Source: Streptomyces sp. (GTDB taxonomy: Bacteria; Actinomycetota; Actinomycetes; Streptomycetales; Streptomycetaceae). From it: a stretch of 64,000 nucleotides of DNA. Positions 4,610-10,689 of this stretch are shown piece by piece; position 1 is the first letter of the stretch; every line of letters begins with the position of its first letter. The DNA is taken from NCBI GenBank assembly GCA_013362785.1, contig JABFVM010000222.1:19-64018 (forward strand), in the 5' to 3' direction. Made by a program: the position numbers and the translations under genes. Under the pieces are notes generated by a model, which made no database searches, was not told the DNA's origin, and saw only the letters and a program-made list of their open reading frames with translations.

Positions 4610-5614
4610 GTGCCAAACGTGACCCGCGCCGACGCCATGGCTGCCGTGCGCAACCCGCTCGCCTTCATCGCCGCACGCTGGACCCCGACCCCGAGAACGG
4701 TCCAACGGGCGGCTCTCGCCGCGCTCGTGATGTCGGTGGTCATCGTGGTCACCGGCGGCGCGGTGCGCCTCACCGGGTCCGGGCTCGGCTGCCCGACCTG
4801 GCCCAAGTGCACCGACGACTCGCTCACCGCCACCAGCGAGATGGGCGTCCACGGTGTGATCGAGTTCGGCAACCGGATGCTGACGTACGTGCTGTGCGCG
4901 GCCGTCGGCTGGGCGATCATCGCCGCACGCTCCGAGAAGCCGTACCGGCGCAGCCTGACCCGGCTGGGCTGGGCGCAGTTCTGGATCGTGATGAGCAACG
5001 CGGTGCTCGGCGGCATCGTCGTGCTGGTCGGCCTCAACCCGTACACGGTCGCGGCGCACTTCCTGCTCTCCTCCGCGCTGATCGCCGTCGCCACGGTGAT
5101 GTGGCAGCGCACCCGGGAGGGTGACTCGGCGCCGCGTCCGCTGGTCGGCAAGGCAGTGCAGCAGCTCGTGTGGTTCCTGGTCACGGCCTCCGCGCTGCTG
5201 ATCGCGGTCGGCACGGTCGTCACCGGCGCGGGTCCGCACGCGGGCGACTCCAGCGAGGTCGAGCGGATGCCGCTCGACTGGGAGAACGTCACCAAGCTGC
5301 ACGCCGTGCTGGCCTGGATCGTGGTCACGCTGACGTTCGCCCTGTGGTTCGTCCTCAAGGCGGTCGACGCCCCGAAGGGCCCCCTGAACCGCACCCGCGA
5401 CCTCTTCCTGATCCTCCTCGCCCAGGGCGTCATCGGCTACGTCCAGTACTTCACGGACCTCCCGGAGATCCTGGTCGGCCTGCACATGCTCGGCTCGGCC
5501 GTGACATGGATCGCGGTGCTGCGAGTGCTGTTGGCGCTGCGGGAGCGGTCCGCGGAGGACGTGGAGGTCCCCGGTTCCGCGCAGTCGGGGTCAGCCGTGG
5601 GCGCCGGGGTCTGA
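4610..5614 (+). CDS. ctaA: Heme A synthase (COX15/CtaA family)
   Basis: TGGAVRLTGSGLGCPTWPKC, IEFGNR, conserved His in TM helices (AAHF, KLHA, GLHM). Probable leaderless GTG start 7 nt after TACGAT. Confidence 0.85.
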   Translation: MPNVTRADAMAAVRNPLAFIAARWTPTPRTVQRAALAALVMSVVIVVTGGAVRLTGSGLGCPTWPKCTDDSLTATSEMGVHGVIEFGNRMLTYVLCAAVGWAIIAARSEKPYRRSLTRLGWAQFWIVMSNAVLGGIVVLVGLNPYTVAAHFLLSSALIAVATVMWQRTREGDSAPRPLVGKAVQQLVWFLVTASALLIAVGTVVTGAGPHAGDSSEVERMPLDWENVTKLHAVLAWIVVTLTFALWFVLKAVDAPKGPLNRTRDLFLILLAQGVIGYVQYFTDLPEILVGLHMLGSAVTWIAVLRVLLALRERSAEDVEVPGSAQSGSAVGAGV

Positions 5615-6274
5615 CGCGCCGTCGGCCCGGCCCGCACGGTCCTCAGAATCCCTCGGTGACCTGCCGTTCCCGGGCGTGCTCGGCGTCAGTCCTTCTCCCG
5701 GGCTGTCCTGCGGTGCCGTCAGGAGTGTGTTGAACACGGCGCGCAGCTTGTCCACGGTCTGCCGGGAGAACATCCCCACCAAGGCCGCCACGGCCGCCAC
5801 GCCGTACGGATTGATCACCTCCGACGACGCCACGCTGGTCGTGAGCCCACCGCGCAGCACGCAGTAGACGACGAGGGCCAACGCCGCCCCGACGAACGGC
5901 TCCAGCAGGTACATCGTCATCCAGCTGCGGCGCAGCCGCCGGTTGCCGACGTACTCGTACACCGAGCGCAGTACATGGATCAGGGCGCCCAGTCCGCCTG
6001 CCGACACCACGACCAGGAAGAGCAGCGTGTCGCGCGACAGGCCGGTCGTCCAGATCAGGATCCGGGTGCTGGTCTCCTTCACGGTGCCGCCGTCCGGTGC
6101 GGCGGGCGGCGGCCATGCCTGGAGCAGGACCGTGATGAGCGCGGCGGTGAGGAACAGCAGTACCCCGACCAGGACGACGACGTCCCATACCGTCGCGAAC
6201 CGGCTGCCCACGTCCATCCGCTGCGGCTGCCGCCCGACCGGCCGGTCCGGCTGCGCCGTTCCCCCTTCCGCCAT
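5591..6274 (-). CDS. Uncharacterised ~4-TM membrane protein
   Basis: Four hydrophobic segments; GGLGALIH...YVGNR...SW...PFVGA.LA...LRGG...NPYG...GMFS pattern; GC3-rich frame; starts 10 bp after the ROK gene stop. Confidence 0.75.
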   Translation of the reverse strand: MAEGGTAQPDRPVGRQPQRMDVGSRFATVWDVVVLVGVLLFLTAALITVLLQAWPPPAAPDGGTVKETSTRILIWTTGLSRDTLLFLVVVSAGGLGALIHVLRSVYEYVGNRRLRRSWMTMYLLEPFVGAALALVVYCVLRGGLTTSVASSEVINPYGVAAVAALVGMFSRQTVDKLRAVFNTLLTAPQDSPGEGLTPSTPGNGRSPRDSEDRAGRADGASDPGAHG

Positions 6275-6283
6275 CGTGCACCC

Positions 6284-7813
6284 CTAGTCCCGGCCGAGCC
6301 TGTCCCGGGCGACCGCGGCTGCGGCGCGGGCTCCCAGTTCGTCCTCGTAGGGGCGGGTCACCAGCCGTGCTTCGCCCGCCGTGGAGAACGCGTGCTCGGT
6401 GCAGGTGTTTCGGACCGCGTTCATGAAGACCTGCGCGGCGGGAAACTCCTCCCGTCCCTCCGTCACCAGTGCCTCGGGGCCGTACAGCACGACGTGTTCC
6501 GGATTGGTGAGGTTGAGCAGATCGGCGAGGCCGAGGCCCAGTGCGCGGCCGGCCTCCTCCAGGGAATCGTTGACGGCCTTGCTCTCCTTGCCGAGCAGGG
6601 CGAGCGCCGCACTCAGATCCGGTACGCCGTGCCCGGTCAGCTCGTCGACCCGGCGGGCGATGGCGTCGGTGCCCGCGACGCTCTCCAGGCAGCCGCTGTT
6701 CCCGCAGCTGCATGCGTGGCCGCAATAGCTCTCGACGACGACGTGTCCGATCTCGCCCGCGGCCCCCGACGCCCCGTGCAGAATCCGGCCGTCGACCATC
6801 AGTCCGGCGCCGATGCCCTTGTCGAGCAGCACCACGGCGAAGTCGTCGCTGTCCCCGGCGTCGCCCAGTGTCCGGGCCAGTTGGGCCAGGGCGTTGGCGT
6901 CGTTCTCCAGGACTGTCGGCAGACCGGTCGCCTCCTGCAGCGCCGCCGCCCATGAGAAGCCCGGCCAATCGGCGTCCGACGCGTAGTTGGGCGCGTTGAC
7001 GACATCGCCGCGTCCGCTCGCCACATGGCCACCGATCTCCACACCCAGGGCGGTCCGGCCTGCCTGTGCGGCGTCGGCGGCCGCCGGTACCTCGTCCAGG
7101 AGACGGTGCACGAGCTCGGTGAAGGCGGCGGTCAGCTCCTCCTGTCCACCGAGGCGCTCATCGCTGCTCGCCGTGGCCAGGACCTCTCCCTGCGGATCGG
7201 TCACCACGCCGGTCAGCGAGGAGGGCCGCACCTTGACGCCCACGCAGTAGTCGAGGCGTGTGGGCTCCGGGGCGAGCAGCCCGGCCTGCTCCAGGTACTG
7301 CGCGCCGCGCGGGGTGATTCCCCAGGAGTTGCGGCGCCACTGCCGGCTCTTCCACGCCACGCCGGCGCCGAGCATCTTCCGCCCGATGCGGCTGACCTCG
7401 GTGATGTCCACGTCCAGCAGCTTCGCGAGCTGCTCGTTGCTCAGACCGGGCTCGCGGGCGACCGCGGTCAGGAAGCGGGCCGCGTGCCCCTGCGGGTCGA
7501 GGGCCAGCTGCAGGCCCGAGGGGAGTCGGCGCAGCGCCCAGTAGGTCATGTCGATCAGTCCGAGCAGGCGGCCGTGCTGCTGTGCGCGTGTCCCCTTGTC
7601 CCGGTCGGCGCGCAGATGGCTGCCGTACAGCCTGCGCAGCCCGTCATGGGCGGCCCGGAGCGCCGGTTCGTCGGCGGTCAGTGATGCGTCGGTGACGATC
7701 ATGGCCAGGGAACTGAACTTCCCCGACGGTATCTCGTCCAGCGACCGCATCTCCTCCAACATGGCCCTCACTTCGGTTAACCGATCACGCTCGGGCTCCT
7801 TCGACTCACTCAT
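6284..7813 (-). CDS. Fusion of an N-terminal helical domain, a MarR-like winged HTH and a ROK domain (regulator)
   Basis: wHTH PGLSNEQLAKLLDVDITEVSRIGRKM...WGITPRG. ROK motifs ENDANALA, GIGAGL, GAAGEIGH and Zn motif CSCGNSGCLE. RBS AGGAAGGAG before ATG 7813. TTA at codon 12. Confidence 0.85.
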   Translation of the reverse strand: MSESKEPERDRLTEVRAMLEEMRSLDEIPSGKFSSLAMIVTDASLTADEPALRAAHDGLRRLYGSHLRADRDKGTRAQQHGRLLGLIDMTYWALRRLPSGLQLALDPQGHAARFLTAVAREPGLSNEQLAKLLDVDITEVSRIGRKMLGAGVAWKSRQWRRNSWGITPRGAQYLEQAGLLAPEPTRLDYCVGVKVRPSSLTGVVTDPQGEVLATASSDERLGGQEELTAAFTELVHRLLDEVPAAADAAQAGRTALGVEIGGHVASGRGDVVNAPNYASDADWPGFSWAAALQEATGLPTVLENDANALAQLARTLGDAGDSDDFAVVLLDKGIGAGLMVDGRILHGASGAAGEIGHVVVESYCGHACSCGNSGCLESVAGTDAIARRVDELTGHGVPDLSAALALLGKESKAVNDSLEEAGRALGLGLADLLNLTNPEHVVLYGPEALVTEGREEFPAAQVFMNAVRNTCTEHAFSTAGEARLVTRPYEDELGARAAAAVARDRLGRD

Positions 7814-7867
7814 GTCACTCTCCTTCCTCGCCCCCGTTTTTGGGTTGCTCCCCCACCATGAGGGCGC

Positions 7868-7898
7868 TGTCAAGTGAGTGTCAAGTGAGGATTCTTGA
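7868..7898. promoter_or_regulatory. Candidate promoter/operator of the ROK-nitrilase divergon
   Basis: TGTCAAGTGAG x2 (7868-7889), giving two TTGACA hexamers on the minus strand, overlapped by the inverted repeat TCAAG-N8-CTTGA (7881-7898). Confidence 0.55.
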
Positions 7899-8045
7899 TC
7901 CTTTCCGAGTCTTTACGGAGGACCGGCGAATGATCGAGCAAGGTACACCGCAGCGCATTTGTGACCTGTTTTTCGAAGAATCCGGTACGACCGCGTGTAG
8001 GGCTCCACTAATATCCGGCTACGCGCTCACGCTTCGGGGGGAAAG

Positions 8046-9539
8046 ATGGACACAATAGAGCCGCAAGATCATGCCCATTCGATCAGCGAGATCGAATTAC
8101 CGGCCGACCCGGCCGATCTCTTCGTCGTCCTCTATGACGAGCTGCCGGACGAACACTTCAGCGGGCGCCAGGCACTCACCTGGTACGACGACCCGGACCT
8201 GCAGGCCCTCACCGACTCGGTGTGCGAGGACGTCATCCAGCACGGCCGGGCCACCCTCACCCTGGTCCACGGGATCATCCACGAGTACGGCGACGCGGGG
8301 AGGTTCGCCGTACTGATCGGCCTCGACCAGGCATTCCGCCACGCCGGGGTGCACCCGGGGTGCATACCCGTGGCGAAGCTGGAATGGCTCAGCGTGCGCT
8401 ACAACGAAACACACAGCCTCAACAGCAACACAAAGCACACCGGGCTTTTACTGCCCCGCTTCACCCGTCCGGCCAGGCTGCTCGCCGAACCGGCCGACAA
8501 ACCCGATTTCTTCGGAGTGCACCGGGTGACTCCATCCCAGTGCGCAGGAATACACCACACGGGGATCGAGCCCGATATAGATCCCGGATTCCATCCCGAG
8601 AAAACGATTTCCATCGGGTCGGTGCCGATGTTGGAAACCCACCACGATCTGAAGTTCGATTACTCCGCGGCCAATGGCGCCGGTCTTTACCGGATCACTC
8701 CGAAGGAAGGAGTCCTGGGCCCGCGGATCGACACCGTGATCCGTGACCTGGAGAATTCGGGTGCTGTGATCGGAGTCCTGCCCGAGTGCACGCTCTCCAA
8801 CGACCTGCTGGAGCACTGGGAGGGTCTGCTGGACGCCGACCCGCCACCGGCCAGCAGCCTGGAATGGATCCTCCTCGGCACAGGTCCGCTCGGCTGCATG
8901 AATCCGCCGCCGAACCGGGCCGTTCTGGTGGACCGAGTCACCGGGCAGCAGCTGCTGAAGCAGGACAAGCGGGCCGGCTTCACGTTCGGCGTCGGTCAGG
9001 CGGCCGAGTGGGGGTTGCCCGGCCACCCCGTGCGCGAACCCATGGCCGAGGACATCACCAGGGGTCAGCAGGTCACCGTCCTGGAGACCACCATGGGGCG
9101 CATCGCCGTCCTCATCTGCGAGGACGTCAAACAGAACGCCGCCTGGATCGGCAAGTGCCAGGCCTTCGGCGTCTCCCACATCTTCGTCCCGCTGTTCGCC
9201 GCACCGATCAGCTGGGAGCTGAAGAAGTGGGAGCGGATCGCCGCGGAGCACTGTGTCGACGAACTCGGCGCCTGGGTCGTGCTGGCCAACAGCCTCGCCG
9301 TGGGGGAGGCGCTGGATCTGGAGCCGCGGATCAAGCAGGAGGACTTCTTCAACTGCCTGGTGATCGGCCCGCGGATTCCCAGGCCGAAGGGGTACGGCAA
9401 GCATCCCGCCCAGTTCTGCCGTTCCGACAGCGGCACAGAGCTCGCCCGGGTCATCTGCGACGAGAACGGCGACAAGCCCGCGGTCGAGGTGGGTACGCCG
9501 CCGCCCCTGCCCTCGATCCAGTGCGGGCGAGGGGACTGA
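8046..9539 (+). CDS. Carbon-nitrogen hydrolase (nitrilase-fold) protein with a long uncharacterised N-terminal region
   Basis: Candidate catalytic triad in nitrilase order and context: VLPE (E247), QDK (K308), LICED (C358), plus a VLANS motif. RBS GGGGGA. TTA at codons 18 and 135. Confidence 0.72.
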   Translation: MDTIEPQDHAHSISEIELPADPADLFVVLYDELPDEHFSGRQALTWYDDPDLQALTDSVCEDVIQHGRATLTLVHGIIHEYGDAGRFAVLIGLDQAFRHAGVHPGCIPVAKLEWLSVRYNETHSLNSNTKHTGLLLPRFTRPARLLAEPADKPDFFGVHRVTPSQCAGIHHTGIEPDIDPGFHPEKTISIGSVPMLETHHDLKFDYSAANGAGLYRITPKEGVLGPRIDTVIRDLENSGAVIGVLPECTLSNDLLEHWEGLLDADPPPASSLEWILLGTGPLGCMNPPPNRAVLVDRVTGQQLLKQDKRAGFTFGVGQAAEWGLPGHPVREPMAEDITRGQQVTVLETTMGRIAVLICEDVKQNAAWIGKCQAFGVSHIFVPLFAAPISWELKKWERIAAEHCVDELGAWVVLANSLAVGEALDLEPRIKQEDFFNCLVIGPRIPRPKGYGKHPAQFCRSDSGTELARVICDENGDKPAVEVGTPPPLPSIQCGRGD

Positions 9540-9582: not shown

Positions 9583-10689
9583 TTACTCCAGCCCGTACAC
9601 CCGCCTCGCGTTCCCCGCCGCCACCATCTCCGCCACCCGCTGTGCGTCCACCAAGGACCACGCCCCCTCGGCCACCCAGCCGCCGAGCACCCTGGCGAGG
9701 GCCTCGCGGAAGAGGCCCGCGCCCACCACATGGAGTTCGGGCAGGCCCTGGGCGCCGCTGGAGAAGAGGATCTTCCCGAAGGGGGCCAGTTCCAGGATCT
9801 CGGCGAGGATGGTGGCCGCCCGGGCGCCCGTGCGGATGAGGGCGGCGCCCGAGTCGGTGTAGACGTGTGGGAAGACGCCGGCCAGATGGGCGGCGTGGCG
9901 GTGGTACGGGTAGCCGTGCAGCAGGATCAGGTCGGTGCCGAGGCCGGCCGTGGCACGGACGAAGTCGGTGAGCAGGACCGGGTCCGTACGGTCGATGCGC
10001 ACACCCGGCTCCCCCATCCCCGCGTGCAGTTGGAGCGGCAGCCCCGACGCGATCGCGATCCACAGCAGATGCCGTAGCAGCACCGGGTCGGTCAGCTCCC
10101 CGCCCACCCTGCGCCCCGCCAGCCAGCGGCCCGCCGCGCCCCGTACCTCTCCCGGCCCCGGGGGCTCGGGGGCGAGCGCCAGTCCGTGCCGGGCTCCGGC
10201 GACGGAGGTGAAGGCGACAGCGCCGGCCGCGGCGCCGTGCACCGATTCGGCGAGGTTGGCGAGGAAGGACTCGACGGTGCCGGAGGTGTCGGCGACCTGT
10301 TCGGCGAGCAGCTCCAGGCGCACGATCTCGCGGGCCCCGGCGGAGGCGGCGGAGGCGAGTTCGTCGGGGCCGGTGAGGTCGCCGGGCACGCCGGTGTCGA
10401 TCAGATAGGTCGTGATGCCGCTGCCGCGCAGCAGGCGCCGGCCCGACTCCAGTACGCCCAGTTCACGGCGCCTGGCCAGATAGCGGGCGGGTGAGCAGTG
10501 CGGTTCCAGGCCGAGTAACGGGGGGCACCAACGTCGTACGGCGAAACCCGTCTGGGTGTCGAAGAGTGTGGTCCCGGGGGCGGGCGGGCCCTCCGTGCGG
10601 GCCAACTGGGCCTCGAAGGTGCCGAGGCCCAGCTCCGTCCGCAGTACGCCGTGGCAGTACTGGTCCACGAGGGACGGCGTTTCGATCAT
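9583..10689 (-). CDS. Amidohydrolase-family (FluG N-terminal-like) protein
   Basis: VDQYCHG, LQLHAGMG, LLHGYPY, KILFSSGA, GNARRVY. TTA at codon 58. Confidence 0.8.
   Translation of the reverse strand: MIETPSLVDQYCHGVLRTELGLGTFEAQLARTEGPPAPGTTLFDTQTGFAVRRWCPPLLGLEPHCSPARYLARRRELGVLESGRRLLRGSGITTYLIDTGVPGDLTGPDELASAASAGAREIVRLELLAEQVADTSGTVESFLANLAESVHGAAAGAVAFTSVAGARHGLALAPEPPGPGEVRGAAGRWLAGRRVGGELTDPVLLRHLLWIAIASGLPLQLHAGMGEPGVRIDRTDPVLLTDFVRATAGLGTDLILLHGYPYHRHAAHLAGVFPHVYTDSGAALIRTGARAATILAEILELAPFGKILFSSGAQGLPELHVVGAGLFREALARVLGGWVAEGAWSLVDAQRVAEMVAAGNARRVYGLE

Follow-up and report, generated by a model that had tools for sequence, protein, structure and literature searches.

A divergent C-N hydrolase and winged-helix regulator gene pair, with a membrane-protein partner, in Streptomyces and other actinobacteria

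The 64,000-nucleotide stretch of Streptomyces sp. DNA analyzed here (contig JABFVM010000222.1; the whole stretch is referred to as the window) carries a three-gene module between ctaA and an amidohydrolase gene. The module encodes a C-N hydrolase of the nitrilase superfamily, a divergently transcribed regulator that includes a winged helix-turn-helix (wHTH) domain, and a small membrane protein with four hydrophobic, presumptive transmembrane segments (4-TM). The hydrolase and a homologue of the wHTH protein are encoded side by side at every actinobacterial locus compared, and the 4-TM protein is a frequent third member. The trio is tentatively read as a self-contained, autoregulated effector module, that is, a wHTH/C-N hydrolase pair of toxin-antitoxin (TA) type with a dedicated 4-TM partner; we put the probability of this reading at about 0.42. 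The source assembly comprises 8.0 Mb in 626 contigs with a completeness of about 80%, and near-identical DNA is present in several soil metagenome runs.

The gene pair, its control site, and its third member

The hydrolase family numbers 370 representatives at the 50% clustering level, and 78 genome loci from Streptomyces, Actinomadura/Spirillospora, Amycolatopsis, Umezawaea, and Mycobacterium were compared. A divergent homologue of the wHTH protein (regulator residues ~20-205) lies directly upstream of the hydrolase gene in 78 of 78 loci (77 by tblastn and one, L077, by profile). The 4-TM gene is found in 68 of the 78; it is downstream of the regulator gene in Streptomyces and convergent to the hydrolase gene in the Thermomonosporaceae. 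When all neighboring genes at these loci are clustered, only the hydrolase, wHTH, and 4-TM families are conserved across genera. Prevalence was assessed in samples of 400 Streptomyces species and 104 species of an Actinomadura-type genus. Within the Streptomyces sample, the same four genomes contain the hydrolase, the wHTH protein, and the 4-TM protein in its close form, and strong 4-TM matches are limited to hydrolase-bearing Streptomyces. Metagenomic relatives of the hydrolase (26-33% identity) have a divergent wHTH partner in 15 of the 16 cases with an upstream flank. This comparison of loci shows that the helical-wHTH protein and the hydrolase form an obligate gene pair and that the 4-TM protein is a frequent third member. 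Co-occurrence of the three genes across distant taxa had been posed as a check in a first-pass annotation of the window, which also inferred that the operon is not metabolic; the co-occurrence is borne out, and no conserved metabolic partner gene appears among the neighboring-gene clusters. The notion that the trio is merely three unrelated genes, brought together by chance adjacency or an annotation artefact, is scarcely credible and is refuted by the strict co-occurrence, the conserved layout, and the operator conserved across families.

The hydrolase consists of a family-specific N-terminal domain (residues ~14-190) followed by a nitrilase-fold domain (~191-480). In the AlphaFold2 model (pLDDT 89.4, pTM 0.90), the N-terminal region has helices at residues 22-122, with short strands and helices onward to ~190. 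Foldseek matches the model to 191 PDB chains at E <= 0.001; the top 50 listed all belong to the nitrilase superfamily at probability 1.0, the probability at which D-carbamoylase, Nit2, beta-ureidopropionase, and AmiF are matched. The assignment of the modeled structure to the nitrilase fold, an alpha-beta-beta-alpha sandwich, is firm. Across 27 diverse homologues, with identity as low as 31%, residues E247, K308, E335, and C358 (the last in the motif I-C-E-D) do not vary. The family profile shares the PE...L-S and I-C-E-D motifs with the glutaminase domain of Mycobacterium tuberculosis NAD+ synthetase (3dla) in a weak match (E 0.099). Conservation and predicted fold together strongly support an intact Glu-Lys-Glu-Cys enzyme, bearing out the nitrilase fold and the catalytic residues, C358 included, that had been proposed from the DNA alone.

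No Pfam match is found for the hydrolase (P0003), which does not reach the cut-off of PF00795 (CN_hydrolase); precomputed PF00795 matches exist in one homologue and in 11% of the ESM Atlas cluster. NCBIfam gives a single match, far under its cut-off (E 0.094), and only the CARF_nitrilase model of PADLOC-DB 2.0 matches, weakly (E 0.0038). The family is, on sequence grounds, a divergent branch of the nitrilase superfamily. It has the fold and the Glu-Lys-Cys chemistry in common with the small-molecule amidases (D-carbamoylase, Nit2, beta-ureidopropionase, AmiF, and the NAD+ synthetase glutaminase). However, identity to these enzymes is only 12-16%, and the hydrolase alone has the extra N-terminal domain of ~175 aa. 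Relatives of this domain beyond its own family were not found in the ESM Atlas, and no homology was detected between it and the N-terminal helical domain of the wHTH protein. Longer forms of the hydrolase with fused domains were sought but not found, and three apparent fusions (P0087, P0222, and P0169) contain no informative domains. In one Actinomadura-type species, a second hydrolase copy (G154:C1:961030-962436) lies within a 1016-aa open frame and is possibly fused.

As judged from the aligned loci, the constant partner of the hydrolase is a protein of ~200 aa with a helical domain and a MarR-like wHTH, to which a ROK domain is an add-on. The AlphaFold2 model of the helical-wHTH part (pLDDT 83.5) places helices at residues 31-116 and the wHTH at 130-196, and Foldseek matches the wHTH to SlyA, MarR, and MepR. 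Pfam MarR matches all 19 members weakly, below the gathering cut-off. Identity between the Streptomyces and Thermomonosporaceae proteins over this part is 45-65% (alignment A2). Among the Streptomyces and Thermomonosporaceae loci, ROK is fused only in L003, L004, L008, L009, L014, L034, and L041, which represent three basal Streptomyces lineages (that of the window included) and one Actinomadura. A fused ROK domain is also present in L066, L128, and L131, which are distant relatives, and because the fusion recurs at this distance, the link between ROK and the module is probably meaningful as well as recurrent. The helical-wHTH-ROK fusion had been put forward as a part of the system; the helical-wHTH partner proves universal, but ROK belongs to some lineages only.

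The ROK part of the window regulator (Pfam ROK, E 9.5e-38) has an intact sugar-binding GEIGH motif and an intact zinc motif, C-G-H-A-C-S-C-G-N-S-G-C-L-E (CGHACSCGNSGCLE); the position of the kinase motif DxGGT is occupied by VGVKVRPSS. We take a domain altered in this way to be of the repressor type, in line with what is generally known of ROK proteins. ROK repressors such as NagC and Mlc likewise have a wHTH followed by a ROK sugar-binding domain that contains the zinc motif and lacks the kinase motif. In contrast to these repressors, the window regulator has an extra N-terminal four-helix domain, its wHTH is orthologous to the stand-alone partner of the hydrolase, and its NCBIfam scores fall far under every equivalog cut-off. 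It also has no adjacent sugar transport or catabolic genes; as noted at first pass, none lies within the module, and none is conserved beside the trio.

The divergent intergenic region contains a tandem direct repeat with an 11-bp period, which had been noted before and is present as described. The repeat is conserved well beyond the window. The pattern CAAGTGA-N4-CAAGTGA (full consensus TG[C/T]CAAGTGA-N-TGTCAAGTGA) occurs once per ~17-kb locus in 64 of the 78 loci, always between the divergent genes, and the repeat-bearing loci span the Streptomycetaceae and Thermomonosporaceae, i.e., two actinobacterial orders. With up to two mismatches allowed, the 8-Mb genome contains no second site of this kind. 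The minus strand of the window repeat reads TTGACA, 18 nt, CATGGT. Across loci, the repeat supplies TTGACA on the regulator strand, and a CATGGT/CAYYCT hexamer lies 17-18 nt further on; the assignment of these hexamers as -35 and -10 elements was made by eye, and a simple promoter scan of the intergenic region did not call promoters. Because the repeat covers the regulator -35 hexamer and spacer, it bears the signature of an autoregulatory operator, and its conservation strongly supports its prediction as such a site for the wHTH protein. MarR-family repressors are similar in their wHTH fold, in a gene divergent from the target, and in an operator over their own promoter. Here, however, the site is a tandem direct repeat instead of a palindrome, which is unusual for a MarR-like protein, and a long N-terminal helical domain stands in place of the usual dimerization helices.

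In two Actinomadura species, IS605-family elements are inserted in the wHTH/hydrolase intergenic region (L069:6113-7678 and L073:6501-7661). One element encodes an IscB-like RRXRR+HNH protein and the other a TnpB (OrfB_IS605 with a Cas12f-like TNB). After insertion, the repeat stays beside the hydrolase gene in L069 and beside the regulator gene in L073.

Hydropathy places the hydrophobic segments of the 4-TM protein at residues ~22-56, 82-105, 119-146, and 153-169, confirming the original description of four such segments in a small protein. Three elements do not vary within its family (alignment A3): a cytoplasmic loop rich in arginine (H-x-L-R-S-x-Y-x-Y-V-G-N-R-x-L-R-R-S-W) and the motifs RGGL and NPYG. 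The protein has a short disordered tail in Streptomyces, whereas the Thermomonosporaceae form has an extra C-terminal stretch of ~80 aa, which is read as an IPT/TIG domain from the alignment and from an ESM Atlas structural neighbor of 275 aa annotated as a "putative IPT/TIG domain-containing protein" (TM 0.75). PASTA domains are found in more distant structural relatives. Searches of Pfam, NCBIfam, and PADLOC returned no match for the 4-TM protein. A stand-alone 4-TM paralogue (E ~1e-35 to the profile) is present in six of the Streptomyces genomes sampled, only one of which also has the module. The paralogue loci that were fetched (L115-L118, e.g., L115:4890-5564) contain xanthine dehydrogenase, XdhC, and permease genes and, once, a SIR2-STAND neighbor; this setting among purine-catabolism genes gives no functional clue.

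Locus layout, distribution, and evolution

The module forms a divergon between ctaA and the amidohydrolase gene (Table 1). The 4-TM gene overlaps the ctaA stop (5614) by 24 bp, 9 bp separate it from the wHTH-ROK gene, and 43 bp separate the end of the hydrolase gene from the convergent amidohydrolase gene; these spacings, together with the 232 bp between the divergent genes, are as first annotated. The ATG of the regulator is preceded by a ribosome-binding site, GGAAGGAG. A longer reading of this gene from a TTG at 7873 is unlikely; homologues begin at the ATG. The atypical composition reported earlier is also confirmed, both in the 32 of 60 GC at 8401-8460 and in the three TTA codons of the module. 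Overall GC is 65.4% in the hydrolase gene versus 69.9% in the window. The flanking amidohydrolase gene has a TTA codon as well (codon 58).

Table 1. Coordinates of the module and of its flanking gene in the window
Feature	Position	Strand	Basis or detail
4-TM membrane protein gene, 227 aa	5591..6274	-	ORF, hydropathy, alignment A3
Regulator gene (four-helix domain + MarR-like wHTH + ROK), 509 aa	6284..7813	-	from ATG 7813
ROK domain of regulator, accessory fusion	6302..7219	-	Pfam ROK, residues 219-524
Helical + wHTH part of regulator (residues 30-197 of P0002)	7283..7786	-	alignment A2, AlphaFold2, Foldseek
TTA codon 12 of regulator	7778-7780	-	
Divergent promoter region, 232 bp	7814..8045		56.5% GC
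Tandem direct repeat, predicted operator of the wHTH protein	7868..7889		TGTCAAGTGAG x2, 11-bp period
C-N hydrolase (nitrilase-superfamily) gene, 497 aa	8046..9539	+	
TTA codon 18 of hydrolase	8097..8099	+	
TTA codon 135 of hydrolase	8448-8450	+	
Span of hydrolase catalytic residues	8784..9119	+	E247 8784-8786, K308 8967-8969, E335 9048-9050, C358 9117-9119
Flanking Amidohydro_2 gene, convergent to hydrolase	9583-10689	-	

Eight related Streptomyces lack the module; in these, ctaA and the convergent amidohydrolase gene are adjacent, with 0-900 bp between them, which identifies the 3.9-kb block as an insertion by comparison. The same slot holds the module in 15 of the 17 Streptomyces-clade loci and, on this comparison, behaves as a variable hotspot. 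The empty slots of relatives yielded no trace of the module. Three relatives (L095:7483-8228, L096:1171-1904, and L098:7356-8277) have an unrelated conserved insert of ~730 bp in the slot, 75-79% identical among them.

Only 4 of 400 Streptomyces species (~1%) have the module, versus 75 of 104 (72%) in the Actinomadura-type genus. In that genus, the hydrolase is always intact, single-copy in 74 of the 75 species, and often found with the same neighbors. These counts show the module to be accessory in Streptomyces and near-core in Actinomadura, as far as genome sampling goes. The claim of an accessory, inserted block in Streptomyces is upheld by the low prevalence and by the module-free slot of the eight relatives; the module is not rare everywhere, as the Actinomadura-type genus shows.

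A quick tree of the hydrolase resolves family-level clades, with SH-aLRT values of 97 for Streptomyces and 96 for Thermomonosporaceae; the Pseudonocardiaceae are separate and long-branched. Identity among hydrolases is 47-59%, versus 83-95% for the flanks, and dN/dS is 0.16-0.60, versus 0.01-0.11 for the amidohydrolase. All three module genes are under purifying selection. Whereas the GC content of the hydrolase gene is unremarkable in Actinomadura, it is slightly reduced in Streptomyces. At least one TTA codon is present in 17 of 17 Streptomyces hydrolase copies (2.76 versus 0.54 per 1000 codons in flanking genes, ~5x), copies that share ancestry and are not independent. The codon is at the same place, just before a conserved [PST]-A/V-D motif, in 12 Streptomyces copies and the window. 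Thermomonosporaceae copies have no TTA enrichment.

The Pseudonocardiaceae and Mycobacterium loci have unrelated, variable neighbors and are not prophages. At 27 Thermomonosporaceae loci (e.g., L035:3102-6107, L044:3337-6501, and L067:9477-16409), the fetched flanks contain large AfsR-like SARP regulators composed of Trans_reg_C, BTAD, NB-ARC, and TPR domains, up to three in a row. This proximity may reflect either synteny or a regulatory link.

Phage, proteobacterial, and defense-system relatives

In one phage contig from IMG/VR, the wHTH and hydrolase genes, again divergent, are flanked by the genes for the large terminase and the portal protein, a place where phage cargo is typically found; the GC content of the pair is 62%, against 69% in the surrounding sequence. 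The contig (L106:164-12571) also contains genes for a DAM-like methylase/GNAT fusion and a capsid protein, and the wHTH protein encoded there is extended at its C terminus by ~150 aa in which no domain is recognized. Scans of viral contigs with the wHTH and 4-TM profiles found nothing. In Azospirillum chromids, a hydrolase gene of the same family (hhalign probability 99.9) is followed by a co-directional MarR-like gene with a 4-bp overlap. On a Rhizobium plasmid (L108), the gene order is a MarR-like wHTH, a 737-aa protein with an N-terminal ParA/MinD-type NTPase and a weak C-terminal repeat match, and a same-family hydrolase (hhalign probability 99.35, E 6.5e-21, covering part of the N-terminal domain). 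The surrounding island (L108:627-12537) contains an FRG gene, the wHTH/ParA-like NTPase/C-N hydrolase operon with a small HMA-like gene, and genes for a nucleoside 2-deoxyribosyltransferase, SIR2, and a P-loop NTPase.

Pairs of a C-N hydrolase toxin and a helix-turn-helix (HTH) antitoxin have been predicted, computationally only, in ParA-based ternary immune systems, or "TA-ParA" (Li, Burroughs, Aravind, bioRxiv 10.64898/2026.10.19.760177). By its gene content, the Rhizobium operon fits the subtype of that preprint described as TA-ParA with a C-N hydrolase toxin and an HTH antitoxin. The actinobacterial trio has the hydrolase family and the coupling to a MarR-like wHTH gene in common with this subtype. 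It differs in that the pair is divergent instead of co-directional, the third gene encodes a 4-TM protein, the wHTH protein has a four-helix domain (and ROK in the window), a conserved tandem-repeat operator is predicted, and the module is near-core in one actinobacterial genus. No ParA-sensor gene was found within 8 kb in the 78 actinobacterial loci. The first-pass statement that no named system has this composition thus needs amendment: the three-gene composition is not described as such, but C-N hydrolase/HTH pairs are predicted in bioRxiv 10.64898/2026.10.19.760177.

Nitrilase domains also occur in reverse transcriptase (RT) defense systems. The nitrilase domain of DRT1 has been described as an effector of unknown substrate, and a nitrilase with a transmembrane (TM) protein is a known composition in the validated UG5/DRT systems. 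The class 3 UG/Abi RT systems (DRT1, UG5-large "RT-nitrilase + TM," and DRT11) resemble the trio in a nitrilase domain with an intact catalytic set and, often, a small TM protein. In contrast, the trio is without an RT, has a different N-terminal domain in its hydrolase, and includes a wHTH regulator. No RT was found in the window module or its conserved neighborhood; PADLOC matched no DRT model to the window proteins and gave nothing for the regulator or the 4-TM protein.

Proposed function and competing readings

Under the TA-like reading, the wHTH protein would repress both divergent promoters, and its four-helix domain may also hold the hydrolase inactive. A signal that removes the wHTH protein would allow the hydrolase to cleave a C-N bond other than a peptide bond in a small molecule that is abundant or essential, and the resulting growth arrest could serve abortive infection, addiction, or programmed death. 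In the ROK-fused forms, including that of the window, the signal would be a sugar or amino sugar bound by the ROK domain. The 4-TM protein may act as a membrane sensor or co-effector through its invariant cytoplasmic loop. Gating of hydrolase translation by the bldA tRNA is additionally proposed for Streptomyces because a TTA codon is kept in every Streptomyces copy. The TA-like reading is ranked first on four grounds: the hydrolase family is shared with ParA systems, related loci occur in a phage and on a plasmid, the composition is self-contained, and evolution is rapid. The rarity and variable slot of the module in Streptomyces, the Azospirillum pair, and the known combination of a nitrilase with a TM protein in UG5/DRT systems also count in its favor. 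This reading retains in part the earlier proposal of a sensor-enzyme-effector module for conflict or defense: the module is inserted and co-inherited and its enzyme is intact, but the conflict role is one that we infer.

Several observations weigh against this reading. The TA status of C-N hydrolase/HTH pairs is a computational prediction only, and no orthology could be detected between the wHTH partners found with the proteobacterial hydrolases and that of the actinobacteria. Type II TA genes form a co-transcribed operon autoregulated by the antitoxin, and divergent transcription is atypical of them; the actinobacterial pair is divergent and the Azospirillum pair co-directional with its 4-bp overlap, and an operator over the regulator promoter fits autoregulation. 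The module does not lie in a defense island in the window; its neighbors are housekeeping genes, and apart from the weak CARF_nitrilase hit it matches no PADLOC defense model. Among 2.9 million viral contigs, the pair is present in a single one, and a tblastn search of 50,697 phage genomes found no pair. ROK domains usually belong to sugar metabolism. Lastly, single-copy presence with conserved neighbors in 72% of the Actinomadura-type species looks like a resident physiological function.

A module for ligand-responsive physiology is a real possibility, though still a tentative one. In such a module, a MarR-like (here ROK-fused) repressor would control a divergent cytoplasmic amidase or acyl-transferase acting on a sugar-linked or envelope-derived amide (e.g., an N-acylated amino sugar or a muropeptide-type compound). 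The 4-TM protein would import, export, or sense this compound, and ligand binding would free the repressor from the tandem repeat. This explanation ranks a close second: the module is prevalent in Actinomadura, its regulator is fused to ROK in several lineages, the genes have a divergent layout of the MarR type, and the window module has no defense context. A divergent regulator and enzyme are typical of MarR-type control, and the ROK fusion is present in at least three deep lineages, with sugar and zinc motifs kept and the kinase motif lost. Purifying selection on all three genes, conserved metabolic neighbors of the single-copy genes in the 75 Actinomadura-type species, IPT/TIG or PASTA domains in the structural relatives of the 4-TM protein, and the shortage of firm defense-model matches point the same way. 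Yet no pathway can be discerned, as the trio has no conserved companion encoding a transporter, a kinase, or a second enzyme. The pair also occurs as cargo in a phage and part of a ParA-type system in a plasmid defense island, Streptomyces species have it only rarely and in a variable slot, and the hydrolase evolves much faster than the neighboring metabolic genes.

The retained TTA codon has also been considered as a sign of a signaling module for development or secondary metabolism in mycelial actinomycetes, in which the hydrolase would make or destroy an amide signal or precursor at the onset of differentiation, under bldA gating in Streptomyces and linked to the adjacent AfsR-like SARP regulators in the Thermomonosporaceae. 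Consistent with this idea, the codon persists in all 17 Streptomyces copies, and at one position in 12 of them and the window, despite ~50% protein divergence; Trans_reg_C/BTAD/NB-ARC/TPR regulators lie in the fetched flanks of the module at 27 Thermomonosporaceae loci, and the hydrolase family is concentrated in mycelial Actinomycetota. However, the TTA-bearing copies share ancestry, acquired genes commonly carry TTA codons in general, the SARP adjacency may be plain synteny, and the family extends to non-mycelial Proteobacteria and phage, which together leave this explanation unlikely. An equally doubtful extension of the TA-like reading is a three-component death/immunity system of mycelial actinomycetes, in which a dedicated wHTH antitoxin-repressor, bound to the tandem repeat, would restrain the hydrolase toxin, and the 4-TM protein would arm the toxin as a membrane sensor (with an IPT/TIG-like ectodomain in the Thermomonosporaceae), joined in some lineages by the sugar-sensing ROK domain. 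In Streptomyces, bldA gating would confine firing to differentiating hyphae. If this were true, a TA-type effector would be linked to developmental programmed cell death or abortive infection.

What is already known is that the pairing of a C-N hydrolase with an HTH protein has been predicted once, and only inside ParA systems. The three-gene actinobacterial form is new in its 4-TM protein, recurrent ROK fusion, conserved operator, retained TTA codon, and prevalence of ~1% in one genus versus 72% in another. Nitrilase-fold domains are effectors in validated anti-phage systems (DRT1 and UG5), and the family of the trio is a small, RT-free version of these. The module offers an obvious catalytic cysteine, a DNA-binding partner with a sharply delimited, predicted operator of 22 bp, a membrane protein, and variants with and without a ROK sensor; it makes directly testable both what a conflict-type C-N hydrolase cleaves and how such an enzyme is held in check. 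If its role is instead physiological, the trio would represent a new regulator-enzyme pair that is near-core in Actinomadura.

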